64,000 bases of DNA from Candidatus Kapaibacterium sp. (GCA_027082775.1 JALWUI010000058.1:7255-71254), one strand, 5' to 3'. Positions 2,861 to 41,259 are shown, numbered from the stretch's first letter. Notes: generated by a model not told the origin, from the letters alone. Translations and numbers: made by a program.

Positions 2861-4243
2861 TTACAACAAAATGCCATACAAAATCAGGTTGGCAACAGTG
2901 AAGTAGATGATAATCCCCGTTACGTCCACCAGGGTTGCAACGAAAGGAGCAGAAGAAGTGGCAGGATCCAGTCCCAGGCGGCGCAGCAGGAAGGGCAGCA
3001 TCGAGCCAACGATTGTTCCCCAGAGCACAATGCCAACCAGCGCCAGAAACACGGTGAACCCAATAAGATGCCAGAAGCTATGGTATCGCGGATCTGTGGC
3101 AGCGGTAAAAGCTGCCCGCATAAAGCCCAGGATGCCCAGCATTGCGCCCAGCAGGAGTCCGGTCAGGAGTTCCCGGCGTAAAACTTTTTTCCAGTCTCCC
3201 AACTGCAACTCCCCCAATGCCATTGCCCGAATCACAAGGGTTGCGGTCTGTGAGCCAGAGTTGCCGCCGCTGGAAATCAGCAGGGGAATAAACAATGCTA
3301 AGATGACCGCCTGCGCAATTTGATGCTCGAAATATCCGAGGGCAGTGGCGGTAAACATTTCGCCGACAAAAAGAAGAATCAACCACATTCCTCGTTTCCG
3401 TACCATTTCCAGCAGTGGCGTTGCAGTATAGCTGGTTTCCAGCGCTTCCATTCCCCCAAACTTTTGAATATCCTCCGTGTCTTCTTCTTCCACCACATCC
3501 AGAATGTCATCAACGGTGACGATTCCCAGCAAATATCCACGGGTATCAATCACTGGCAAAGCCACGCGATCGTACTCTTTAAACACTTCAATTGCTTTCT
3601 CCTGGGGATCGGTGGCATACAGGAAGGGAAAATGTTCGTTCATAATGTCGAAGACATAGCTTTCCGGTTCTGCCAGCAGCAATTTCCGAATCGGCAACTC
3701 TCCAATCAGTTTCCCCTGGTCATCGGTAACATACAAAATGTTCAACGTCTCGCTATCCTTGCCATAAGTCCGGATATAGTCCAGCACTTTCTGCACGGTC
3801 CAGTGTGCCCGGACTGCCACAAAGTCCGTTGTCATTAAGCGTCCAACGCTTTCCTCCGGATAGGCAAGGAGCGCCTGAGCAATTTCCCGTTCCTCTGGAG
3901 ACAACAAATTGAGCAGTTGTTGCACTACGTTGCCCGGCAATTCTTCCAGCAGTGCTGTTCGGTCATCCGGATCCATTTCATTGAGTATCGAAGCAATTTC
4001 CCGCTGCGCCAGGGTTTGCAACAACGCTTTCTGCTGCTCCAGTTCCAGATACTCAAAAACATCAGCAGCTAATTCCGTAGGCAGGATGCGGAACAGCAGT
4101 GCCTGTTCGTGCGGCTCCAGATGTTCAATCAACTCTGCAATTTCGACCGGATGCCATTCCTCCAGAACAGACCGAATGGTCATAAAGTCCCGCTGTTGCA
4201 AAAGTTCCCGTATTTCGGGCAAGACTGCTGCAACAATCATCAT
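2861..4243 (-). CDS. mgtE: Magnesium transporter MgtE
   Basis: 460 aa with the N-terminal MgtE domain, tandem CBS region and C-terminal TM domain carrying the conserved GGNSGSQ motif. Confidence 0.9.
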   Translation of the reverse strand: MMIVAAVLPEIRELLQQRDFMTIRSVLEEWHPVEIAELIEHLEPHEQALLFRILPTELAADVFEYLELEQQKALLQTLAQREIASILNEMDPDDRTALLEELPGNVVQQLLNLLSPEEREIAQALLAYPEESVGRLMTTDFVAVRAHWTVQKVLDYIRTYGKDSETLNILYVTDDQGKLIGELPIRKLLLAEPESYVFDIMNEHFPFLYATDPQEKAIEVFKEYDRVALPVIDTRGYLLGIVTVDDILDVVEEEDTEDIQKFGGMEALETSYTATPLLEMVRKRGMWLILLFVGEMFTATALGYFEHQIAQAVILALFIPLLISSGGNSGSQTATLVIRAMALGELQLGDWKKVLRRELLTGLLLGAMLGILGFMRAAFTAATDPRYHSFWHLIGFTVFLALVGIVLWGTIVGSMLPFLLRRLGLDPATSSAPFVATLVDVTGIIIYFTVANLILYGILL

Positions 4244-4430: not shown

Positions 4431-5273
4431 ATGAAAGAATCGTGGAAGTATGCTTCGCGACAGTACCAGCCCGAAGATACGGTCGTGAGCATTGGATCGG
4501 TTTTTATTGGAAGCGGTGAGCCGGTTGTGATTGCTGGTCCCTGTGCGGTAGAAAGTGCGGAACAGATTGTGGAAACAGCGCTGGCAGTCAAAGAAGCCGG
4601 GGCGCATTTACTTCGGGGCGGCGCGTTCAAACCGCGCACCAGCCCGTATGATTTCCAGGGGCTGGGCGCAAAAGGATTGGAGCTTCTGGCACAGGCACGG
4701 GAAATGACGGGATTGGGCATTGTGACTGAAGTACTGGATCCTGCCGATGTACCGCTTGTTGCTGAGTATGCAGATATGCTCCAAATTGGCAGTCGGAATA
4801 TGTACAACTACCCCCTGCTGCGAGCCGTCGGACGACAGGATAAACCTGTGCTGTTGAAACGCGGGATGTCTGCTACCCTCTATGAGTTTCTGATGAGTGC
4901 CGAGTACATCTTAGCAGAAGGAAATCCGAACGTTGTTCTGTGCGAGCGCGGCATTCGCGGTTTTTCGGACTTCACCCGAAATACTCTGGATCTCAGCATT
5001 GTGCCGGCGGTCAAACAATATTCCCATTTGCCCATCATTGTCGACCCCAGCCACGGAACTGGTCGACCGGAGTACATTGAGCCAATGAGCCTGGCAGCCT
5101 TAGCCGCAGGTGCCGACGGCATTATGGTAGAAGTACACCCGCGCCCCCATCGAGCACTCTCTGATGCAGATCAGGCACTGACTCTTACCCAATTTCAGGA
5201 AATGATGAAAAAAATTCGCTCATTCTTGGAGTGGCGCCGCAGCTATGGACATTCTTACCTTGAACATCCGTGA
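4431..5273 (+). CDS. 3-deoxy-7-phosphoheptulonate (DAHP) synthase, class I-beta. The KDO8P-synthase family is related, but context favours DAHPS.
   Basis: 280 aa with a PEP-utilising aldolase fold. Motifs include [15 protein letters not shown] and IVDPSHG. It sits first in a shikimate-pathway operon. Confidence 0.7.
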
Positions 5274-6396
5274 TCGGGAGCTCAATCCCATACCATTTTT
5301 TATTGCACCCGCCCTACACGATCAGTGGCAGCGGTGGTTGCAGGTATACCCTTATCGGATTGACCAGATTTTCTGGATTGTGGATGCAACCGTTAACCAA
5401 CTGCACTCAAAAATCCTGGAGTATTACCAGGAGAACACGGAAAAGACTGAACTGGTAGTCTTATTCCCGGCGGGAGAACCGTACAAATCGCGACGTTTTC
5501 GGGACATTCTGGAAGATGTTTTACTAAATGCCAGAATCAATCGGCATTCGCTCATCATTATTGTCGGTGGTGGAACGCTGGGCGATCTTGCCGGTTTCGT
5601 AGCAGCGACCATTCATCGGGGTATTCGTTATGTGTTCTTCCCCACCACGCTACTGGCGCAGGTGGATAGCTGTCTGGGTGGGAAGGTAGCTATCAACCAT
5701 CCACAGGGTAAAAATCTGCTCGGCACATTTCATTATCCCACCGCTGTTTTTATCCGCACCCGTTTCCTCCGAACGCTGCCGTGGGCTGAGTGGGTCAATG
5801 GTTTAGCCGAGGTGATTAAGTATGCCCTCCTGTTCGACGTCCAGTTGTTAACCGTTTTGAAGAAATATTACCGGGAAATTCGAGCACGAGACTCTGTCTG
5901 GGTCCAGCGTATTATCCGTCGATCTTTGCACTGGAAGAAATGGGTCGTTGAACACGATCCTGATGAACGCTGGTACCGCGCCTCGCTGAATTTTGGGCAC
6001 ACTGTTGGGCACGCTCTGGAACGGTACTTCAACTACACAATCTCCCACGGAGCGGCGATCCTGATTGGAATGGCAGTGGAATTACTGCTGTCGCAACGAC
6101 TCTGCTCCTGTCCAGGATACCTCTTAAAAGAATTACAAACACTTCTGGAACGCTACCCAGAACCCAGTGTACTCCAATTGCTGAATGCTGATCCAGACGA
6201 GCTGTGGCGATGGATGCAATATGACAAGAAATCAGATGACGAGGTGCGCTGTAGCCTCCTCCACACCATTGGCGATCCGTGTCTCTATGAGCCTGTTTCG
6301 CAATCACAGTTTCTCTATGCGTGGGAATCCCTTCAAAACCTGCCTCTCGTTCTGGATCAGTTCGATCCACAATCTGCCGACCTTAGCGGAGATTAG
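5245..6396 (+). CDS. aroB: 3-dehydroquinate synthase
   Basis: 383 aa. The Rossmann GGG motif ([18 protein letters not shown]), metal-binding His residues and overall collinearity match AroB. It extends ~20 aa beyond the usual AroB end. Confidence 0.85.
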
Positions 6397-7786
6397 CCAG
6401 CCAGTAGATCTGGTGGAGCTCCGCGCAGATCGCTGGCGAACGCCCGACTGGCAGGCAGCCCGGCGGCAGATCCCTCAGCCAATCATTGCTACAATTCGAC
6501 GCAGAGCAGAAGGTGGTGAATGGGAGGGATCAATGCACCAATGGGTGCAGCTCTATAAAGCAGCTATTGAAGCAGGCTGCCAGTGGATCGATGTGGACAT
6601 TCAGGGCATTGCCGCCTTTGATCAGGATTTTCTCAACACGGTCTTCGCCCGCCGCGGCGTGCTTTCAGCCCATTTCACGGACGAACAGTCTGTCGATGCC
6701 ACCGTACGTGCAATGGCAGCAATTCCGGCTGCGGTGTACAAATGCGTTCTCCCGGAAGAATTCGCCCGCTGTATGCGTACGGTCACTGCCCTCATTGATT
6801 TCTGGAAATCGCTGAACAAAAAATTTATCGTTCACTGCTCCGGCGAAAATGCGACCAGCACCCGCCTCTGGGCTGCGATCCTCGGAAATGCGTGGACATA
6901 CATCGCTGCTGGAACTGAACGAACGGCAGCCGGGCAACCAACTATGGAGGAACTCCGATGGTATCGGCTGGATCAAAAAACGCCAGAGACCCGGCTGCTG
7001 GGACTTTTCGGCTATCCCCTGCACCAAAGCCGGGGATGGCAACTCCATAACGCCCTGCTGGCACTTTTCGGCTATGCAGATCGCTGGCTCTATCTCAATT
7101 TCCCCGATCCTGACTTTTCTGCTGCATTCGCTGCCTGGCAGCCGTGGCTGGATGGTGCCAGCATCACGATTCCACACAAACAAACAGCGGTGGCACTGTG
7201 CGAAGAACGGTCACCAGAAGTCCAGATAACCGGGGTTTGCAATACCATTCTCCGACGGGAAGACCACTGGGCAGCCTTCAATACCGATTTTCTGGCACTG
7301 CGCGAGCTGCTGCTCCCCTTCCAATCACAACTCCGCCGGGCACTGGTCGTTGGCACGGGCGCTACTGCCCGAACTGCCATCGGCGTACTTCAGCAAATGG
7401 GCGTTTCTCAGATCTGGGTGATGGGACGATCGGCGGCAAAGCGCAAGGCGCTGGCGACACACTTCCACTGCTCCTCCCTTCCGCTGGGTGCGCCACTCCC
7501 AGCACCGGTTGACATCCTCATTCACGCCACTCCTGTTGGGATGGTTCCCTATACGGAGCAGATGCTGCCATTGACCCCCTACCTTCATCCTCAAATGGTG
7601 CTGGTAGAAGTGGTGCACAACCCTGCCGAAACACTGCTGGTCCAGACTGCACGACAGCAGGGCGTTGCTGCGATTATCACCGGGATCGAGCTCTTTCTGC
7701 ATCAGGCGCGCTATCAATTTCAGCTCTTCACAAACGTTTGCCCCTCTATCCAGCAAATGTGGCAGGTATGGAAACAGCTCCAATGA
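6317..7786 (+). CDS. Bifunctional 3-dehydroquinate dehydratase (type I) / shikimate 5-dehydrogenase (AroD-AroE fusion)
   Basis: The N-terminal half aligns with type I DHQase (VDLVELRAD ... RRRAEGGEW ... IDVDIQG). The C-terminal half aligns with AroE (LFGYPLHQSRGWQLHN, ITIPHK, NTDFLAL, VVGTGATARTA). The start is uncertain. The first in-frame ATG at 6317 overlaps aroB by 80 nt. The ORF-track start at 6185 is implausible. Confidence 0.75.
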   Translation: MRGNPFKTCLSFWISSIHNLPTLAEISQPVDLVELRADRWRTPDWQAARRQIPQPIIATIRRRAEGGEWEGSMHQWVQLYKAAIEAGCQWIDVDIQGIAAFDQDFLNTVFARRGVLSAHFTDEQSVDATVRAMAAIPAAVYKCVLPEEFARCMRTVTALIDFWKSLNKKFIVHCSGENATSTRLWAAILGNAWTYIAAGTERTAAGQPTMEELRWYRLDQKTPETRLLGLFGYPLHQSRGWQLHNALLALFGYADRWLYLNFPDPDFSAAFAAWQPWLDGASITIPHKQTAVALCEERSPEVQITGVCNTILRREDHWAAFNTDFLALRELLLPFQSQLRRALVVGTGATARTAIGVLQQMGVSQIWVMGRSAAKRKALATHFHCSSLPLGAPLPAPVDILIHATPVGMVPYTEQMLPLTPYLHPQMVLVEVVHNPAETLLVQTARQQGVAAIITGIELFLHQARYQFQLFTNVCPSIQQMWQVWKQLQ

Positions 7787-7917
7787 TCAAACGGGGCACT
7801 ATGTTCATCCGGACCGACCGGTTGATTCCCGGCTGGATAACCGCCAACCAAAAGCCTCAGCGCCAGATCACAGTGCAGGGAAGCAACACAAAGGAAAAAC
7901 AAACGAAGGAAAAAGTA

Positions 7918-9185
7918 TGCTGATGACCACACCAATCCGCATTCTGGTTCCTCCTTCCAAAAGCTTCACCCACCGGGCAATGGTCATTGGCGCATTAGCT
8001 GCTCCGGGAACGGTCATTCAATCACCGCTCTGGGCAGAAGATACCCAACTGACGGCGAAAGGATTGGAAGCGCTGGGGGTACAATGGGCATACGAATCAA
8101 CCGGGTTGCGGGTTCAAAACGTCATTCCTCCATCCCGGCCGATCCGCCTGTTTGCTGGAAACTCCGGGACAACTGTCCGGTTTCTCACTGCCCTTGCCGC
8201 CCTCCTGAGCCCATACGAAGTCCAGCTTGATGGAACGCCACGGATGCGGCAGCGTCCGCTGCAACCGCTGCTCAGTGCGCTGGAACAAATGGGAGCACAA
8301 ATCCGATCAACCAATGGGTTTCTGCCAATCTCTATCGTTGGCGGATCGCTTCGTCCCGGACGGGTCGTAATGCCGGGACATATTTCTTCGCAATTCCTCT
8401 CTGCTCTGCTGTTCGTCGCAGCCAGACTGTCCGGCACCACCCTCATCGAGCTGAGCACTCCGCTGGTATCCGCAGGATACCTCCGGATGACCCAGTGGTT
8501 CTTAGAACAATCCGGCGTCGAAGTCTCGTGGGAATCCGAACACGAGGTGATGATCACGAGTGATGGGGCACCACTCCCTGCGCAAACGTGGACAGTTGAA
8601 CGCGACTGGTCTGCGGCTGCATTCTGGATTGTCGGCGCACTGATCGCTGAACGCCCCGTTATCCTGCCAGAACTCCAGCCAAACAGCTTACAGAGTGACT
8701 CTACCATCGTGGAGCTCCTGCAAAACGCTGGTGCTTCACTTCAGTGGAACGGAAACGAGCTTCTGATCGATGGTTCCTGTCAACAAGGAATCGACGTCTC
8801 ACTCCGCAATATTCCTGATCTGTTCCCCGCACTGGCAGTCTATGCCGCCTGCGCCCATACGCCTTCGCGCTTTCGGGATTTCCAGCACCTCCGGTGGAAG
8901 GAATCGGATCGCATCAAGGCAGTCGTGGAAAATTTACAACGCATCGGCGCTCAGGTAACATCCCGAAAAAACGAAATCATCATCACGCCAGCAAATACCA
9001 TCCATCCTGCCACCATTCGAACCTACAATGACCACCGCATTGCAATGGCGTTCGGACTGCTGAAACTCCGCAATCCGCATATCCAACTGGACGACTCTGC
9101 CTGTGTGCAAAAATCGTATCCGGCATTCTGGAAACACTGGGAACTGCTTACATCCTCAGTGAACACCTCAGAAGCATCAAGCTGA
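7918..9185 (+). CDS. aroA: 3-phosphoshikimate 1-carboxyvinyltransferase (EPSP synthase)
   Basis: The ORF-track frame 7665..9185 has an EPSPS-like body (LFAGNSGTTVRFL, RPL..L..LE..GA). The start is set at ATG 7918 (MLMTTPIRILVPPSKS), downstream of the aroDE stop. Confidence 0.9.
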
Positions 9186-9205
9186 TCTGCGAAAATTGCG
9201 TATTT

Positions 9206-9784
9206 TTGAGCGAAGGGAAACTGGCGAGATCTCTGAACAACCGGATGAAGTTACAGCGTTCCATCCTGCTCATTGGCTTCCGCTCCGTTGGCAAAACGAC
9301 CGTTGCACCGCTACTCGCCCGACGCTGCGGAACGCCGTGGTCATCGCTGGATACCATCGTTGAACGGATGACCCGGCTATCGATACCAGAGATGGTAACC
9401 CTGTACGGCTGGGAATACTTCCGGGAGTGGGAAGGACAGATGATGCGGATGCTCTTGGCGCAACCACCGCACGTTATTGACACCGGTGCCGGTATTGTAG
9501 AGCACACAGACTTGTTCCCACTGATTGAACACTGCACCTGGCGCATCTGGCTGGACCTTCCGTGGGACCAGCTTCTGGAACGCTATGATCCACAGAACCG
9601 ACCACCACTGACATCGCTGCCGCCGCAGGAAGAACTGCGGTTGCTCTGGGATCGCCGCCGCCCGCTGTATCAACAATGGGCAAATATTCGGATTGAGATA
9701 GCGGGTAAATCACCGCAACAGATAGCCGACCTGATCGCAGTCGCAGCAAAACAGGAAGGCATTCTCCGCGACACAGAGCGGTAA
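9206..9784 (+). CDS. aroK: Shikimate kinase
   Basis: 192 aa with a P-loop (LIGFRSVGKTTV) and shikimate-kinase-like length. It is last in the aro operon. Confidence 0.8.
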   Translation: MSEGKLARSLNNRMKLQRSILLIGFRSVGKTTVAPLLARRCGTPWSSLDTIVERMTRLSIPEMVTLYGWEYFREWEGQMMRMLLAQPPHVIDTGAGIVEHTDLFPLIEHCTWRIWLDLPWDQLLERYDPQNRPPLTSLPPQEELRLLWDRRRPLYQQWANIRIEIAGKSPQQIADLIAVAAKQEGILRDTER

Positions 9785-16439: not shown

Positions 16440-16920
16440 TCGCTCCGTAGGAACAGGAATGTTTGCCGACGAAAGTCGGCGCTCCCACCGACTGGGAGCG
16501 CACCCTTTAGGGTGCATTCTCTGCCGACGAAAGTCGGCGCTCCCGGCAATTGCCAGCGAAAGCTAGCACTCCCAGTGGGTGCCGGCGAACGTCGTGCTTC
16601 TAGTCCACTGGGAGCGCATACTTTAGTGTGCATTTCTTGCCGGCTGAAGCCGGCGCTCCCAGTTCGGCGCAATCCGGCAGGTCGTCATCACCCGCACCCG
16701 TAGGGGCGACCGGCCGGTCGCCCCTACACATTCGCAACGTTGCCGACGAAAGTCGGCACTCCCAGTCGGCGTCTCCAGTTCACTGGAAGCGCACACTTCA
16801 GCATGCATTTACTGGGAACGCATCCTTTAGGATGCATTTACTGGAAACGCACACTTCATCGTGCATCGTTGACCCTTTGCCGACTGATCCCGGCGCTCCC
16901 AGTCGGCGCTTGCAGAGCGT
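16440..16920. repeat. Cluster of REP/BIME-like short palindromic repeat units (cluster 1)
   Basis: At least 10 units combine a 6-bp-stem hairpin with a GAAA/TGAA/TTTA loop (e.g. GCCGACGAAAGTCGGC, GCACCCTTTAGGGTGC) and the core ACTGGGAGCGC or its reverse complement GCGCTCCCAGT. The units alternate in orientation. The same family recurs at 39.06-39.55 kb. Confidence 0.8.
16700..16727. repeat. Perfect 28-nt GC-rich palindrome inside repeat cluster 1
   Basis: GTAGGGGCGACCGG|CCGGTCGCCCCTAC. A related imperfect copy (GGGCGACCAGCCAGTCGCCCCTAC) lies at about 39418..39443 in cluster 2. Confidence 0.85.
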
Positions 16921-34724: not shown

Positions 34725-36629
34725 TCAGCGTTCGACAGCTAACATCCGCTCATACTGCTGCATATATTCCTTGATAGCGTTCACAATGCCCCGCGCTATT
34801 TTCTGCTGTCCCTGCTTCGACGCCAGGAATTTTTCATCACGAGGATTGGACAAAAAGCCAGCTTCAAACAGAACATTGGGCATTGAGGCGCCAACCAACA
34901 CCAGAAATCCCGCTTGATGAACGCCTCGATCTGACAGACCGGTGGCCTGCGAAACATGCTTCTGGAGCAGCGAAGCAAACAATTCGCTGAATTTCACAAA
35001 AGCCCGCTGCGCCATTGTGGCAATAATCAACTGCTCCTCTGTCAGCTTTACATACCGCTGCTGATCTGCTTCCAGCCGAATAACGGCATTTTCCCGCCGG
35101 GCTACTTCCAGCGCATCAGCGTTCCGCCCCGGTCGAAGAATGTAGGTTTCGCACCCACGGGCAGGATCAGGTTTACGCGGTTTGGAATTACAATGAATGC
35201 TGACAAACAACTTCCCACCGCTTTGATTGGCAATTTGCCCTCGCCGATAGAGCTCAACAAACCGGTCCGTTGTTCGGGTATATACGACTTTAATCTGCGG
35301 GAACTCCTTTTTAAGCAGTCGTCCAACTTCCAGCGCAATTGCCAGCGTAATATCTTTTTCCCGAACTCCTGTTACCCCAATCGCCCCCGCATCCTTGCCA
35401 CCATGTCCCGGATCTAACACAATCACATCCAGTTTCCACTTCTGCTGTTCCTTCTGCAGCTTCTCGGCAACGCTTTCCACCTGCTGCTTGAAATAAATCC
35501 GAAACTTCAGCGCCGTGCTGTTTGCAATGCGGCGATAGTCCACGTCTGCAATCTCCGTAGGGAACTGGAACGTATACCGGAGAATGTTCCGGATCTTTTC
35601 TACTTTGATGCGACACCGATGCTGCTTCCCCAGCGCCGACAGAGAGCCTGCCCGATGGAGTGCATCCGGGATGCGAATAATGAGGGTATTGCCGAAAAAT
35701 TCTGGCTTCTGATAAGCGCCAATGGAACGATTCGCATACAGGTAGAGCTCGTAGGTATCACCGGAAGGCACCAGCCGCACTTTCTGGATCAGCAACGGTG
35801 GTCTGCTGCGCTCTGGTGGTGCTAACCACTCCAGCGGCATAAGCGAGGCTAAAAGTGGCGATGGCCGCAGTGGCACACCAAGCTGGAAGGACTGTGTCTT
35901 GCGAGGTGGTAGCTGCGGTAATGGTCGCCGCAATCCGGGCGGAATCTGGTAAAACAGCGGAGGGAGAAATAGCGGTTTGGCTTTGTACCGGGGAAGCTTC
36001 CGTTGCCCAGCAACTTCCAGTTGCCACTTCCGACTTTCCCCCAGATACCGTGGCAAACCGGTTTCCGCAATCCAGCTTAAGCGCTGACGCACCGCCTCCA
36101 CCCCTTCTTCCAGCGGCGGCATTGCACCGGTCACCACGACAGGCTGGGTGGTGCGTTTCGGTTTAGCAACAAAAGGCAACAGCTCTGCCAGTGTTTCCTG
36201 AAATTGAAGGCGCAGCTTCTTTCCCCGGTGTTCGTAGCGAAGAACGCCCAGCGATCGAAGGGCTTCCAGATAGCCGAACAGCGGTAGAAACGGTTTATCC
36301 TCCCATTGAATCACCGGATAAGGCATCTGGTATTCGTAGCGATTTTCACCTTTCTCCAGATACAAAATCAGGCTCAACGGCGCAAAGCGGAGACGGAACT
36401 GGAGCCGATCGCTCCAGATCCAGTGATGGCGCCACTGTCCCCCCGGAAGAATCCGGGCAGCATCTGCGGGTGAAATATACCGGTGCGGGCCCAGTTGAAG
36501 AACCGTTATTCGCACCGGTTTGTATCCCGATCGCACCACCGTAGAGCGGTGAAACTGCTGTGCTGTCAGAAACACCGGTGCAAGGAGCAGCAAGCTGGCA
36601 AATAGCAGCACACTCCGTTTCTTGTTCAT
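34725..36629 (-). CDS. N-acetylmuramoyl-L-alanine amidase (Amidase_3, AmiC-like) with N-terminal exported domain
   Basis: Signal peptide and a C-terminal Amidase_3 catalytic domain (VLDPGHGGKD...SIHCNS...E). Confidence 0.8.
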   Translation of the reverse strand: MNKKRSVLLFASLLLLAPVFLTAQQFHRSTVVRSGYKPVRITVLQLGPHRYISPADAARILPGGQWRHHWIWSDRLQFRLRFAPLSLILYLEKGENRYEYQMPYPVIQWEDKPFLPLFGYLEALRSLGVLRYEHRGKKLRLQFQETLAELLPFVAKPKRTTQPVVVTGAMPPLEEGVEAVRQRLSWIAETGLPRYLGESRKWQLEVAGQRKLPRYKAKPLFLPPLFYQIPPGLRRPLPQLPPRKTQSFQLGVPLRPSPLLASLMPLEWLAPPERSRPPLLIQKVRLVPSGDTYELYLYANRSIGAYQKPEFFGNTLIIRIPDALHRAGSLSALGKQHRCRIKVEKIRNILRYTFQFPTEIADVDYRRIANSTALKFRIYFKQQVESVAEKLQKEQQKWKLDVIVLDPGHGGKDAGAIGVTGVREKDITLAIALEVGRLLKKEFPQIKVVYTRTTDRFVELYRRGQIANQSGGKLFVSIHCNSKPRKPDPARGCETYILRPGRNADALEVARRENAVIRLEADQQRYVKLTEEQLIIATMAQRAFVKFSELFASLLQKHVSQATGLSDRGVHQAGFLVLVGASMPNVLFEAGFLSNPRDEKFLASKQGQQKIARGIVNAIKEYMQQYERMLAVER

Positions 36630-37591
36630 TGCTCTACTCTGACCATCGTTTGTAATTCCGGATACTGCTCACTTCGCAGCACGCCTGCTAATCGGTAATA
36701 TTGCATCGCCGTCGGACGCCACTTAATGCGCATCCGTTGCATAAATTCTTCAACGGGAATGCCGGATTCTGCCAGTAAGATTCCTGCGGTGTGCCGAATG
36801 GAAAAGGGCGTTATCAGACGCTTGCGATCCTGCTTGATGCCGCTTTGCCGCAACCGCTCGGAAATTGCCTCGCGAATCCCACGAATCGTCATTCGCTGCC
36901 GCTGCGATCGATTGCTGTAGCTCACAAACATTGGTGAATCCTCGTCCAGCTCTTCGTACTGCCGCCGTTTCTCCAGATACCGTTGCACTGCTTCCACTGC
37001 CGCTGGTGGCACAGGCACAACCTCATCTTTCACCGTTCGCCCCTTCCCCTGCACATAGAGGATCCACTTCCGACCCCGGCGTTGCAAATCCCCAATGTTG
37101 GCATACATTATTTCTCGCTCTGAACAGGCGCATCCCAACATCAACTGAATAATCGCTCGATCCCGCAGTCCGATCTCGGTCGTCTGATCAATGGACTCCA
37201 GCAACTGCTGAATCTCCGATAATTGCAGATACATTCGATGATGGTGTTGCGGACGCCGACCGCCAGCCACTCGAGCCGCCGGATTTTTCTCTAACACTCC
37301 TTCAGCGACCAGAAACTGGCAGAATCGTCGCAGAGCAGTCAGATACGTAGCAACCGTTGCTTCTTTGAGCTTCCGCTGCGTTTTGAGAAATTCTCGATAC
37401 CGTTCAACATCGCGCACCCGGAAGAAAAAGTGGCGGTCCTGGACAAAAAAGTTGACAAAAGCTTTCAGGGAACGCTCATACGTTCCTCGCGTTTCCGGTG
37501 ACCGCTCCTGCAACGTCTCCAGAAACGCCGCTATGTACCGCTTGAGCTCTGTGAGCTTGAGCTTGACCGGTTTAAAAGTATCCTTGATCAT
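36626..37591 (-). CDS. Tyrosine site-specific recombinase, XerC/XerD family
   Basis: N-terminal SAM-like core-binding domain and a C-terminal catalytic domain with R..H.R.Y residues (RHTAGILL ... YY). The start is trimmed to the Met at 37591 (MIKDTFKP). Confidence 0.8.
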   Translation of the reverse strand: MIKDTFKPVKLKLTELKRYIAAFLETLQERSPETRGTYERSLKAFVNFFVQDRHFFFRVRDVERYREFLKTQRKLKEATVATYLTALRRFCQFLVAEGVLEKNPAARVAGGRRPQHHHRMYLQLSEIQQLLESIDQTTEIGLRDRAIIQLMLGCACSEREIMYANIGDLQRRGRKWILYVQGKGRTVKDEVVPVPPAAVEAVQRYLEKRRQYEELDEDSPMFVSYSNRSQRQRMTIRGIREAISERLRQSGIKQDRKRLITPFSIRHTAGILLAESGIPVEEFMQRMRIKWRPTAMQYYRLAGVLRSEQYPELQTMVRVEQ

Positions 37592-37965
37592 TCCTCTGCT
37601 GCCTTGCCCCAAAGATTTTTTAAAATTACAACTTTCTGACGAAATGGGAAGCGAAAACGGTAGGAACGGATGCGGATGCGCAATGTCCCGCAAGGGTACA
37701 ATGTTCCATACCGGTACGGACAATTGCTGCTTTGAACGATTCGTAGAAAGTTGATCGGCGCAAAGAAACTGCCGGGAAACAGGTGTCAGGCTACCTGCCG
37801 ATTTTCCCTGCATTCTGTGTTAGGCAGCGGTGAAAGCATATTGCTGATGCAGAAACAGTACGCTGTCCGGAAGCCATCAATCGCTGTTGCTCGCCATACA
37901 CGATTCCGCATTTCCAGCCGTTCTTTGCTTAAGGAACAAGGAAAAAGTCAAAAAAATTTTTAGAA

Positions 37966-39054
37966 ATGATCCGCGAAAGTGCTGAGAAAGTCATCGGACA
38001 ATATGAACACATTCAGGAGCAACTGCAAGATCCAGAAGTTGTGGCGGATCTGGAGCGATATAAACAGTTAGCGCAGGAAGAGAAACGACTAGCTCCCATT
38101 GTTGCAGTTGCACGCCGGTATTTGCAGTTGCTGCGAGAGCATCAGGAACTGGAGGAATTACTGGACAGCGCTGAGGACAAAGAATTAGCAGAGATTGCAA
38201 AAGAAGAACTTCGCACACTGGAAGAAACACTTCCGGCTATCGAGGAAGAGCTGCAAGGGCTGCTGTTACCGGAAGATCCGAAAGATCAGCGGAACTGTAT
38301 CGTTGAGATTCGGGCAGGCACTGGCGGTGAAGAAGCTGCCCTGTTTGCCGCCGACCTGTTTAAAATGTACCAGCGATACGCTGACCGCAAAGGATGGCAA
38401 ATTGAAGTACTGGACTTCCACGAAAGTGACAAAGGAGGCTTCAAAGAGATCATTTTTTTAGTCAAAGGAGAACGGGCATACGGAACGTTGAAGTATGAAA
38501 GTGGGGTCCACCGCGTTCAGCGGGTACCGGAAACGGAGTCGCAGGGGCGAATTCATACTTCCGCCGCCTCGGTTGTGGTGTTACCGGAACTGGAGGATAT
38601 TGAGGTGGAAATCAGCGACGAGGATCTCCGCATCGATGTCTATCGTGCCAGTGGGAAGGGAGGACAGCACGTGAACAAAGTTGAAACCGCTGTCCGGATC
38701 GTTCACATTCCGACGGGGATCACTGTCCAATGTCAGGACGAGCGATCCCAGCATCGTAACAAGGAGAAGGCAATGAAAATCCTTCGGGCACGGCTGTATG
38801 AACTCCAGCAACAGCAGCAGCAGGCAGAAATATCCTCTCAGCGTCGATCGATGATCCGCAGCGGCGATCGATCGGAAAAAATTCGGACGTATAACTTTCC
38901 GCAGAACCGGGTTACCGACCATCGACTTCAGGGAGAGGTAAAAAATTACCCTCTTAAGGAAATTCTGGCTGGCAATTTAGACCCACTGATTACCCAGCTT
39001 CAGTTGCTGGATCGCCAGGAACGACTGGCAGAAGCGAAGCGTACGGCTTCATAA
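37966..39054 (+). CDS. prfA: Peptide chain release factor 1
   Basis: GGQ motif (SGKGGQHVN) and the RF1-type PxT tripeptide region ([21 protein letters not shown]). Confidence 0.9.
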
Positions 39055-39059
39055 CACTG

Positions 39060-39545
39060 TTATCGTTCCCCAGTTTGTGGGGCTCCTGCATAAACACCTG
39101 AGATCACTTTGCCACGAAAGCAGCAACAACAAACACCAGGCTTTCCGGGAGCGCCGGCTTTCGCTGGCAAACACTGGAAACATCCCACTGGGAGCGCCGG
39201 CTTCAGCCGGCATCTTTGCACACTAAGGTGTGCGTTCCCAGTAAACGCACGCTGAAGCAAGCGCCCCCAGTAATCGGGAACGCCAGCGCTAACAAGCACC
39301 GACTGGGAGCGCCGACTTTAGTCGGCAAAGAAAGTGCACCCTAAAGGGTGCGGTCCCAGTGAATGCACGCTGAAGCGTGCGCTCCCCAGTGTAGGGGGCG
39401 CAGCGGCGCTTGCCTATGCGGGCGACCAGCCAGTCGCCCCTACCAGTGCAAAAATTCCCTCTCCCTCCGGGAAAGGGTAAGGGCAATGCACGCTGAAGCG
39501 TGCGCTCCCGGTTGCCAGAAGCGCCAGCTTTCCCGGCAAAGGATG
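39060..39545. repeat. Cluster of REP/BIME-like short palindromic repeat units (cluster 2), same family as 16440..16920
   Basis: Repeated hairpin units (GCCGGCTTCAGCCGGC, GCACGCTGAAGCGTGC, GCACCCTAAAGGGTGC, CCGACTTTAGTCGG) alternate with the core ACTGGGAGCGC / GCGCTCCC(C)AGT. It contains the GTCGCCCCTAC palindrome remnant. Confidence 0.8.
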
Positions 39546-39681
39546 GATACTGGAAGGTGCACTTCCTGATAAAATGGATGCTCATTACCCCGCACTGAAT
39601 ACTGCCATCTGTCCAGTAAAAGTCTGTTTTTTCGTAATTTTCGGGTTTTAAAAACGGGGTTTCACAAGGAAAAGGGAATGG

Positions 39682-41259
39682 ATGGCACGGGTGCGTGAAG
39701 CGTGGGCAACCCGCATTGGTTTGATTTTAGCGGTAGCAGGTAATGCTGTTGGACTGGGCAATTTTCTCCGATTTCCTGTGCAAGCTGCCAGCAACGGTGG
39801 TGGGGCGTTTATGATTCCTTACTTCATCTCCTTCATTCTGCTGGGTATCCCTTTGATGTGGATGGAGTGGACGATTGGTCGCTATGGCGGTCGATATGGC
39901 CACCACAGCGCCCCCGGAATGTTCGCGGTTATCTGGCGACATCCGATCGCAAAGTATCTGGGCGCTCTCGGGTTGTTCATCTCACTCACCATTATGGTGT
40001 ACTACACCTACATCGAATCCTGGACGCTGGGCTATAGCATCTTCTCTCTCCTCGGACTGTATTTTGATAACACAACCTTTGAGAGTGCAAAGGAATTTCT
40101 CCTGAGTTACCAGGGACTCAAACCGGACGGTCCTTTTTCCTCTGTGCTGGTCGCTTACCTTTTCCTGCTGGTGACCCTGGGTATTAACTTCTATGTGCTG
40201 AGTAAGGGAATTTCCGGTGGGATTGAAAAACTGGCACGGATTGCAATGCCAACCCTTTTTGTCTTTGCGGTTCTGTTAGCAATCCGGGTTCTGACCATCC
40301 AGACAGACCCGGCAATTCACAAAGCAACAGTATGGGAAGGGCTCGGATTTCTCTGGAATCCAGATCTCTCTGCTCTGTCGGATCCAAAGGTCTGGCTGGC
40401 GGCTGCCGGACAAATTTTCTTTACGCTCAGCCTGGGAATGGGAACAATCCACGCTTATGCCAGCTACCTCCGACCAAAAGATGACATCGCTCTTTCGGGA
40501 CTGACTACCGCATCGATTAACGAATTCGCAGAGGTTGTGCTCGGTAGTTCCATTGCCATTCCGATCGCTGTTGTATTCTTTGGGGTTCAGGCAACGCAGG
40601 AAATTGCTCAGGGAGGAGCTTTCAATCTGGGCTTCGTATCAATGTCGGTGATCTTCAGTCAGATTCCCTTTGGCGAATTCTTCGGGTTTCTGTGGTTCGG
40701 CTTACTCTTCTTTGCCGGCATCACCTCTTCGGTTGCAATGGCACAACCGGTTATTAGCTTTCTGGAAGATGAGTTTCGCTTTTCCCGTGGCAAAGCGGTG
40801 GCGATTATCGCTGTTTTAACGTTCATCTGCATCCAGCCAGTGGTCTTCCTGCTGGGACACGGATTTCTGGATGAGCTGGACTACTGGGGCGGTACCTTTA
40901 TGCTGGTCGTCTTTGCCCTGATTGAAACTATCCTGTTCGCCTTCGTGCTGGGCGTGGACAAAGGATACCAGGAGTTAATGCGCGGAGCAGATATTCACAT
41001 TCCCGAATGGTTCAAGTTCGTGTTCAAGTACATCACACCGCTGTTTCTTATCATCATTCTGGGCTACTGGGCAATAACGGATGCCTGGCGCGTCCTGCTG
41101 CTGGAAGGAGTATCCCCTGATGCCATTCCGTATCGCTGGGCTGCCAGAGGGTTGATGGTGCTGTTTACAATTGGTATCTGCTGGATGGTCTATCGCGCCT
41201 GGCAATATCGCAAGCAAATGGGATTGCGGGATGATGTCATCGAAGTACCAATTGACTGA
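39682..41259 (+). CDS. Sodium-dependent transporter, neurotransmitter:sodium symporter (SNF/NSS) family
   Basis: N-terminal AVGLGNFLRFP motif characteristic of NSS TM1 and about 12 TM helices. Confidence 0.85.
   Translation: MARVREAWATRIGLILAVAGNAVGLGNFLRFPVQAASNGGGAFMIPYFISFILLGIPLMWMEWTIGRYGGRYGHHSAPGMFAVIWRHPIAKYLGALGLFISLTIMVYYTYIESWTLGYSIFSLLGLYFDNTTFESAKEFLLSYQGLKPDGPFSSVLVAYLFLLVTLGINFYVLSKGISGGIEKLARIAMPTLFVFAVLLAIRVLTIQTDPAIHKATVWEGLGFLWNPDLSALSDPKVWLAAAGQIFFTLSLGMGTIHAYASYLRPKDDIALSGLTTASINEFAEVVLGSSIAIPIAVVFFGVQATQEIAQGGAFNLGFVSMSVIFSQIPFGEFFGFLWFGLLFFAGITSSVAMAQPVISFLEDEFRFSRGKAVAIIAVLTFICIQPVVFLLGHGFLDELDYWGGTFMLVVFALIETILFAFVLGVDKGYQELMRGADIHIPEWFKFVFKYITPLFLIIILGYWAITDAWRVLLLEGVSPDAIPYRWAARGLMVLFTIGICWMVYRAWQYRKQMGLRDDVIEVPID

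Follow-up and report, generated by a model that had tools for sequence, protein, structure and literature searches.

The 627-nt spacer between prfA and a transporter gene in the window (the whole 64-kb stretch of DNA that was analysed) holds a repeat array, which our results indicate is probably a non-coding mosaic of the REP/REPIN/BIME type that recombines locally and would be mobilised by a RAYT-like enzyme. The units share the anatomy of REPs and their tag lies near that of RAYT-associated REPs, and it is on this basis that the array is read as an element of this type; consensus, covarying stems and dispersal support the REP/BIME-like category proposed in a preliminary description of this DNA. 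About 400 nt after prfA, together with about 450 nt at 16.4-16.9 kb, correspond to repeat arrays and not to genes, and they constitute a source of strain-level length variation and explain the breaks of short-read assemblies at these places. The finding adds a REP-like system to the poorly studied Kapabacteria, with a tag one base from that of the RAYT-mobilised Pseudomonas REPs and no transposase visible.

The repeat unit spans 25-34 nt: the tag (A/C)CTGGGAGC precedes a hairpin with a 6-bp stem (GCNNNC and its return strand) closed by the loop TTYA. By means of a scan for tag plus hairpin, the oriented unit was defined as ACTGGGAGC, GCNNNC, a 4-nt loop, GNNNGC and then A, with eight clean copies in 39144-39512 and eight in 16465-16835, counting both strands; their loops are TTTA, TTCA, TTTC or CTTA. 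The outer GC..C stem positions are fixed, the inner three pairs are variable and compensated, and the stems fall into two classes, namely C, GCCGRC (GCCGGC, GCCGAC), and A, GCAYNC (GCACGC, GCACCC, GCACAC, GCATCC). The unit-by-unit alignment proposed earlier as a check yielded a clear common consensus, nACTGGGAGCGCnnnCTTTAGnnnGCA. Further, a covariance model (R1) was built from 31 units and searched against the 64 kb with filters off at E<=1, giving 18 matches: 10 in 16460-16907, 8 in 39140-39516 and 0 elsewhere. Two decayed copies recognised by eye complete the eight detected by the model within 39140-39541. The string GGGAGCGC occurs 13 times against 3.1 expected, a number reached by 0 of 100 shuffles, and 11 of the 13 occurrences are inside the two clusters; the array region also folds more stably than shuffled sequences (z = -8.0). 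With respect to REPs in the wide sense (short stem-loop repeats of 20-40 nt, extragenic), the length, the 6-bp stem and the 4-nt loop agree, and all model matches lie in two intergenic spacers, where the overlapping ORFs have no family match. The motifs listed in the preliminary description were all located, either exactly where stated or a few bases off, with ACTGGGAGCGCC at 39187 and 39302, GCGCTCCCCAGT at 39379, GCGCTCCCGG at 39502, GCACGCTGAAGCGTGC at 39365 and 39488, GCACCCTAAAGGGTGC at 39336, CCGACTTTAGTCGG at 39312 and GGGCGACCAGCCAGTCGCCCCTAC at 39420-39443; the strings described there as a core represent the conserved 5' tag of the oriented unit and not a separate motif.

The flanking genes are those previously named, as Pfam matches identify a release factor on one side and a member of the sodium:neurotransmitter symporter family on the other. 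The extent assigned to the array (39060-39545) holds in part, since recognisable units begin only at about 39140 and 39060-39139 consists of a possible tag remnant plus ordinary spacer. The features of the locus are as follows.

37966-39054, plus strand: prfA (peptide chain release factor 1), upstream flank; Pfam PCRF 2.6e-76, RF-1 4.2e-46.
39067-39090, no strand assigned: possible decayed tag-to-tag remnant, CGTTCCCCAG TTTG TGGGGCTCC; seen by eye, missed by model R1.
39140-39173, plus strand: unit 1, C-class, GCCGGC tttc GCTGGC with one G.T pair, tag TCCGGGAGC; R1 37.1 bits, E 2.9e-7.
39183-39216, plus strand: unit 2, C-class, GCCGGC ttca GCCGGC, left half of heterodimer 39187-39242; R1 44.5 bits.
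39213-39246, minus strand: unit 3, A-class, GCACAC ctta GTGTGC, right half of the same heterodimer; R1 41.1 bits.
39247-39275, minus strand: unit 4, decayed A-class, GCTTGC ttca GCGTGC; R1 10.7 bits, E 0.66, and tag-only selection.
39275-39297, plus strand: decayed C-class remnant GGGAACGCCAGCGCTAACAAGC; by eye and from its 118-nt register with 39394 onward, missed by R1.
39298-39331, plus strand: unit 6, C-class, GCCGAC ttta GTCGGC, left half of heterodimer 39302-39360; R1 47.9 bits, E 7.7e-10.
39331-39364, minus strand: unit 7, A-class, GCACCC ttta GGGTGC; R1 39.9 bits.
39365-39393, minus strand: unit 8, A-class, GCACGC ttca GCGTGC, with one extra C in the tag; R1 20.0 bits.
39394-39449, no strand assigned: decayed GTAG/CTAC-ended palindrome module with two hairpins; 87% complementary to 16694-16723.
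39450-39486, no strand assigned: decayed hairpin module CCCTCTCCC..GGGTAAGGG; colinear with L066 2835-2875 (CCCTCTCCCTGTGGGAGAGGGTAAGGG), fold z -0.65.
39483-39516, minus strand: unit 9, A-class, GCACGC ttca GCGTGC, tag ACCGGGAGC; R1 41.0 bits.
39515-39541, plus strand: unit 10, decayed C-class, AGAAGC GCCAGC tttc CCGGC A; by eye, kept in the close strain, below the R1 threshold.
39682-41259, plus strand: sodium:neurotransmitter symporter family (SNF) gene, downstream flank; Pfam SNF 3.1e-59.
39213-39481, no strand assigned: strain-variable segment of 269 nt, absent from L245/L246/L247; from the spacer alignment.
39289-39585, minus strand: spurious ORF of 98 aa through the repeats; no Pfam match, mostly inside the segment missing in the close strain.
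39060-39299, minus strand: spurious ORF; no Pfam match.
39363-39569, plus strand: spurious ORF; no Pfam match.
16460-16907, no strand assigned: sister array with 10 model matches and an intact 28-nt GTAG palindrome, between divergent genes; mostly inverted relative to the prfA-side array.

Read from left to right, the array thus has the order C+, [C+ A-], A- (decayed), C+ (decayed), [C+ A-], A-, double palindrome, CCCTCTCCC hairpin, A- and C+ (decayed), the brackets marking two heterodimers. Unit 6 is the best R1 match, and a 118-nt higher-order period runs inside this prfA-side array. The alternation of C and A classes in orientation corresponds to what defines BIMEs, and the GTAG palindrome and CCCTCTCCC modules keep their order relative to locus L066. 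Concerning the degenerate copy of the long palindrome reported earlier, 39394-39449 is indeed decayed, with homologous modules at L066 2773-2830 and L007 1809-1865 and with a fold of its own that is no longer significant (z -0.9); its intact counterpart (GTAGGGGCGACCGGCCGGTCGCCCCTAC, 28 nt, fold z -4.8) stands in the sister array at 16697-16728. The judgement that the small ORFs are spurious is borne out, given that all three lack a Pfam match and that most of 39289-39585 is absent in a near-identical strain. A scan of the array for promoters and terminators gave no promoter-like site and no canonical plus-strand terminator; the promoter region of the transporter gene likely lies outside the array, downstream of 39560. 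Directly after the prfA stop codon, the 46 nt at 39055-39100 are hypervariable, with 61% identity to the close strain, compared with 96% for the prfA gene and 95% for the adjacent repeat units.

Covariation in the stems was assessed on copies re-selected by the 10-nt tag alone, in the window plus four related loci, in order to avoid circularity. Among exact-tag copies, 15 of 18 show Watson-Crick pairing at each of the four non-fixed stem positions, with six different stems. A wider set of 48 distinct sequences, allowing one tag mismatch at most and retaining chance matches in coding DNA, gave 79.9% of paired cells against 62.2% in shuffles and a covariation score of 0.431 against 0.157 shuffled (0 of 500 reach it), which fell to 0.11 or less with a slid partner column. 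Double-sided changes in this set number 17-19 at each of the three inner pairs; because the copies belong to few subfamilies, these counts represent a handful of events and not dozens. Stem mismatches comprise 14 G.T and 14 A.C, with no strand-specific wobble bias, and this equal frequency favours neither a single functional strand nor RNA. Compensatory substitutions, one of the checks suggested at the outset, are strongly present, but they do not by themselves imply selection at the RNA level; templated correction of quasi-palindromes could, as an alternative to selection, also account for compensated stems.

Tag-outward pairs of units are a recurrent arrangement, as expected of REPINs, in which inverted dimers predominate, and single half-units and head-to-tail runs are common as well. 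All of the approximately 14 window-type dimers identified by eye (four from the window; a further nine from L007, L026, L066, L121 and L245; two metagenomic, L146 and L212) consist of one C-class and one A-class unit, a half being decayed in several of them. When three window dimers were folded as single strands, the two tags paired and two arms were left, forming a three-way junction with z values of -4.6 to -5.4 (-5.4 for 39187-39242 and -4.6 for 39302-39360). The tag-outward C/A heterodimer of about 57 nt appears to be the propagating entity, a view that these arrangements support. The sister array contains the same dimers in opposite orientation, which explains why inverted repeats make up the longest matches between the arrays.

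The prfA homologues place the organism with Kapabacteria-type bacteria and provided orthologous loci for comparison. Contigs L245/L246/L247 have the same gene order, with DNA identities of 96.3% for prfA and 98.8% for the transporter gene, and their spacer measures 360 nt against 627. The missing segment (39213-39481) has approximate boundaries, since these fall inside repeats, and at the junction the short-spacer contigs carry a mismatched chimeric unit, GCACAC tgaa GGATGC, whose two different stem halves are those expected from recombination between two different units. This shift in array size between near-identical strains, together with the higher-order duplications, indicates that the array lengthens and shortens in place through unequal recombination or slippage; recombination between units is hence shown to expand and contract it locally. 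More distant relatives, at 87% and 80% RF1 protein identity, have other neighbours after prfA, and no units were found in their 11-kb and 7.7-kb loci. Upstream of prfA, the window encodes a tyrosine recombinase (36626-37813, minus strand; Phage_integrase plus a SAM-like N-terminal domain), whose gene shares 4 nt with the beginning of the 634-aa gene upstream; this species has the recombinase gene, which is missing at the same position in the 87% and 80% relatives.

Dispersal, also put forward in the preliminary description, extends beyond the two loci in the window to at least four in a Kapaibacterium MAG: the related assembly WFXC01 (Candidatus Kapaibacterium sp. S141_32_esom) has four loci, at each of which these units cluster and show the stem variants seen here. 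The pattern used to scan reference genomes, ACTGGGAGCGC-N12-GCA, was too loose, and most of the 120 loci listed are chance matches, genuine ones being limited to the four loci of WFXC01 and perhaps L031. Four short-read assemblies, independent of one another, stop within one of the two arrays, which suggests many copies per genome. Furthermore, L066 2743-2935 and window 39364-39539 share a colinear composite block of about 190 nt at 80% identity, with the module order A unit, GTAG palindromes, CCCTCTCCC hairpin, A unit and C unit, and no homologue of the five genes bordering the window's two arrays was found in the L066 flanks. Being common to non-homologous loci, this block indicates that blocks larger than the unit also travel or are conserved. 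The differing unit order of the two clusters had been taken to point away from block copying; this needs qualifying, as blocks are indeed copied, to judge from the 118-nt period within the array and from the block of about 190 nt shared at 80% with another genome. Two variant forms were also observed. At L026 6750-7180, units with the tag CTGGGAGTGC have non-pairing bodies (GCCGCTTTAGCTGACAG, GCTACTTTAAGCGACAC) and lie within a 279-nt tandem duplication adjoining canonical units. At L031 4499-4587, from a Lentisphaerales MAG, two inverted copies of GAGACTGGGAGCGCCGGAtgtaTCYGGCA are separated by 64 nt, with an identical 12-nt stretch before both, and may constitute a further family variant in another phylum.

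Metagenomes were scanned with the dimer outline CTGGGAGCGC-N32-37-GCGCTCCCAG, giving at least 120 loci on contigs with 45-71% G+C. Nearly all matches listed correspond to a sister form (L122-L241), consisting of CCTGGGAGC, a 7-bp stem and a 3-nt TCY loop arranged in tag-outward dimers of 52-57 nt, as at L183 1296-1352 and 4718-4774; its 10-nt tag is identical to that of the window units. Among the matches listed, 173 of 291 exact tags have perfect hairpins with 32 different stems (GCGGGCG, GCGGCCA and GCAGGCG being frequent), the loop read from the tag is TCT or TCC in 139 cases, and the 107 distinct dimers include 69 heterodimers and 18 homodimers. Direct repeats in the flanks, as a sign of target-site duplication, occur at the level expected from shuffling, 80 of 113 dimers among the matches listed having none. 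Of the 56 sites among these matches that were classifiable by a crude gene call, 34 are tandem, 17 convergent and 5 divergent. Both features, the want of duplications and the scarcity between divergent genes, liken the sister form to REPs. One contig is probably from Chloroflexota, to judge from an MftG-like protein 77% identical to that of a Chloroflexota MAG, and another may come from a methanotroph-like host, as it encodes an integrase whose named relatives are proteobacterial methanotrophs. No match to the array or to the consensus dimer was obtained in 7.3 Gb of plasmids, and viral contigs gave one match in 2.9 million.

As to the mobilising enzyme, tblastn with E. coli RayT gave only matches at E>1 in the 64-kb window, which counts against the REP/RAYT reading, and none of the 10 small ORFs scanned matched Y1_Tnp. 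In 1.6 Mb of loci, the same query found one RAYT (L235) and one fragment (L232), and an all-against-all BLAST of the ORFs of 124 loci revealed no relevant recurrent flanking family and no recurring transposase gene. As no RAYT gene was found linked to the units in these searches, we only infer the mobilising enzyme. An enzyme acting in trans, most plausibly a RAYT-like HUH tyrosine transposase, would recognise tag and hairpin on single-stranded DNA, where the two tags would pair and the dimer would adopt the three-way junction with two arms, and would thereby spread the repeats to new intergenic sites. For the host, the array would be largely neutral. It may provide the prfA 3' end with stable hairpins, a secondary effect made plausible by the lack of a plus-strand terminator inside the array.

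Several candidate partners were discarded. The L235 RAYT (3340-4035, 46% identical to E. coli RayT) has GTAG-tagged REPs (GTAGGTCGGGTTAGCGYAGCGTAACCCGACA) on both sides, and a similar REP-like sequence apparently lies inside its reading frame at about 3670-3705; these REPs are its own and different (GTAGGTCGGGTTAGCG...), and the dimer is 1.9 kb away. The ORF between two dimers in L207 encodes a different protein, another gene separates the TnpB-like gene of L127 from the dimer, and the tyrosine recombinase beside prfA has no homologue near any other array. At L232 4200-4315 the dimer is nested in a longer perfect inverted repeat (GTAACCGTTCAGCCCCCCC ... GGGGGGGCTGAACGGTTAC), flanked on either side by another hairpin repeat (GACGGGATTACAAATCCCGTCC); at a distance of 570 nt stands a truncated RAYT N-terminus.

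Described REPs have a terminal tag, a short G+C-rich stem-loop and subfamilies with alternative complementary stems; they are preferentially arranged as head-head dimers, including heterodimers, and their clusters are mixed with flanking DNA (PMC3733652). The RAYT-associated REP of P. putida, TGTGGGAGCGGGCgTGCCCGCGAA, and the Xanthomonas REPs GTAGGAGCGCACC... and GTAGGAGCGC... (Nunvar 2010, PMC2817692) carry very similar tags: the P. putida tag GTGGGAGC equals the unit tag CTGGGAGC at 7 of 8 positions, the first base being C in the unit, and the Xanthomonas GTAGGAGCGC... REP is likewise close. Like GTAG-1 REPs and REPINs (PMC2817692, PMC3116915, PMC3733652), the units combine a 5' tag with a stem-loop, are clustered and extragenic, lack target duplications, form subfamilies with alternative complementary stems and prefer tag-outward dimers. 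They differ from GTAG-1 REPs in having the tag CTGG, and not GTAG, GTGG or CGTC, in the lack of a RAYT found beside any copy, in dimers that are always C/A heterodimers folding as three-way junctions and not as one long hairpin, and in a host that is a Kapabacteria-type bacterium and not a proteobacterium. Among the accepted variants of GTAG (GYAG, GYRG, GTRG, GTMG, GTGG) none corresponds to the unit tag, CTGG(GAGC), and only the 28-nt palindrome carries GTAG. The REPs tagged with CGTC, known from Chlorobi, Bacteroidetes and others (Di Nocera 2013), broadly share the host group and also have loops of 4-5 nt, predominant head-head dimers and no associated transposase gene, but their tag is CGTC instead of CTGGGAGC, their stems measure 8-9 bp and clusters are rare.

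With E. coli BIMEs, the array shares two classes of palindromic unit alternating in orientation, other short conserved motifs in between, an intergenic position downstream of genes and a variable length; there is, however, no sequence relationship, and the additional motifs here themselves belong to other families of palindromic repeats. IHF and gyrase bind to E. coli BIMEs, and binding of IHF, gyrase and Pol I characterises BIME subclasses. The Nostoc SDR, reportedly described by Elhai et al. in 2008, are said to be hairpin units of 21-27 nt with compensatory stem changes, nested or arrayed, and we know of no enzyme associated with them; they differ from the units in their other, cyanobacteria-specific sequences and in insertion at heptamer repeats or HIP1, which was not seen here. 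A cyanobacterial or HIP1-related origin was dismissed, as GCGATCGC is not enriched in the window (2 against 1.7 expected). When the open literature was searched, neither the tag nor peptide signatures of the spurious ORFs led to anything but unrelated papers, and the family may be undescribed, if ordinary in kind. Two further observations speak against the REP reading: divergent genes border the sister array, an unusual setting for REPs, and no insertion at an otherwise empty site was captured among the compared loci.

Other explanations were weighed against the same evidence. An RNA-level function, with the array acting as a barrier or terminator in the prfA 3' UTR, as a leader of the transporter gene or as an sRNA locus and with selection on the transcript, would agree with the very stable RNA fold (z -8.0), the covarying stems, the position downstream of prfA on the same strand with no canonical plus-strand terminator inside, the preference of the superfamily for 3' gene ends and the fact that REPs stabilise upstream mRNA (PMC3733652). 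We nevertheless hold it unlikely, as units occur in both orientations and the same units stand between divergent genes in the sister array, 269 nt are dispensable in a strain of the same species, and equal G.T and A.C mismatches (14 each) leave no strand-specific wobble signature; moreover, the GTAG and CCCTCTCCC modules are decayed here, and Rfam gave nothing at the gathering score and only chance-level matches at E<=5, none reaching two-thirds of its family's gathering score.

We give still less credit to the proposal that the 57-nt dimer is a MITE, with tags as terminal inverted repeats, a DDE transposase elsewhere and arrays formed by nested or adjacent insertions. The perfect terminal inverted repeats of 9-13 nt, (C)CTGGGAGCGC...GCGCTCCCAG(G), and the spread of dimers over unrelated loci and genomes are what such an element would show, but so would target duplications, and the flank repeats of the superfamily dimers stay at the shuffled level (80 of 113 without any, among the matches listed); both single half-units and head-to-tail runs occur often, the flanks of 124 loci show no recurring transposase gene, and 57 nt is below the MITE range, which Elhai et al. 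in 2008 reportedly placed generally over 100 nt. Least probable, and in our opinion hardly tenable, is the view that a dimeric host protein (gyrase, a regulator or a nucleoid-associated protein, for instance) binds the units as double-stranded DNA, so that their palindromic symmetry would mirror that of the protein and not hairpin formation. In its favour, every stem-loop has dyad symmetry, the binding of IHF and gyrase by E. coli BIMEs is established, and the lack of mismatch strand bias is compatible with a constraint on the duplex. Yet the inner stem bases are free as long as they are complementary (six stems here, 32 in the superfamily among the matches listed), and as these variable positions are those that a sequence-specific protein would read, a duplex-binding array is disfavoured; the conserved parts, tag and loop, are asymmetric, and copy number differs between strains.

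Along with the REP/REPIN/BIME-type reading, a bolder extension may be considered, for which we estimate roughly one chance in several: the (C)CTGGGAGC two-armed heterodimer would constitute a third superfamily beside GTAG and CGTC, distributed over distant lineages and served by an enzyme other than a canonical RAYT that recognises the three-way junction. The lineages concerned would be Kapabacteria, the likely Chloroflexota contig and possibly Methylococcales-like bacteria and Lentisphaerales, two of these assignments being based on proteins. The three-way-junction fold of the dimer recalls the T-shaped hairpins that other HUH enzymes nick. If the breadth of the sister form holds, it raises the questions of which conserved enzyme reads the tag and whether three-way-junction dimers are general for elements mobilised as single-stranded DNA.

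Elsewhere in the window, a 714-nt gap (2147-2860) lies upstream of an MgtE-family magnesium transporter gene (2861-4243, minus strand); it contains no ORF of 90 aa or more and gave no Rfam match at the gathering score, hence no recognisable M-box. The stretch 4431-9784 carries clustered genes of the aromatic amino-acid pathway: at 4431-5273 one of DAHP synthase type, whose identical counterpart in L254 matches Pfam DAHP_synth_1; overlapping it, a 383-aa ORF (5245-6396) that by eye looks like 3-dehydroquinate synthase; a 533-aa ORF (6185-7786); and a shikimate kinase gene (9206-9784; Pfam SKI).
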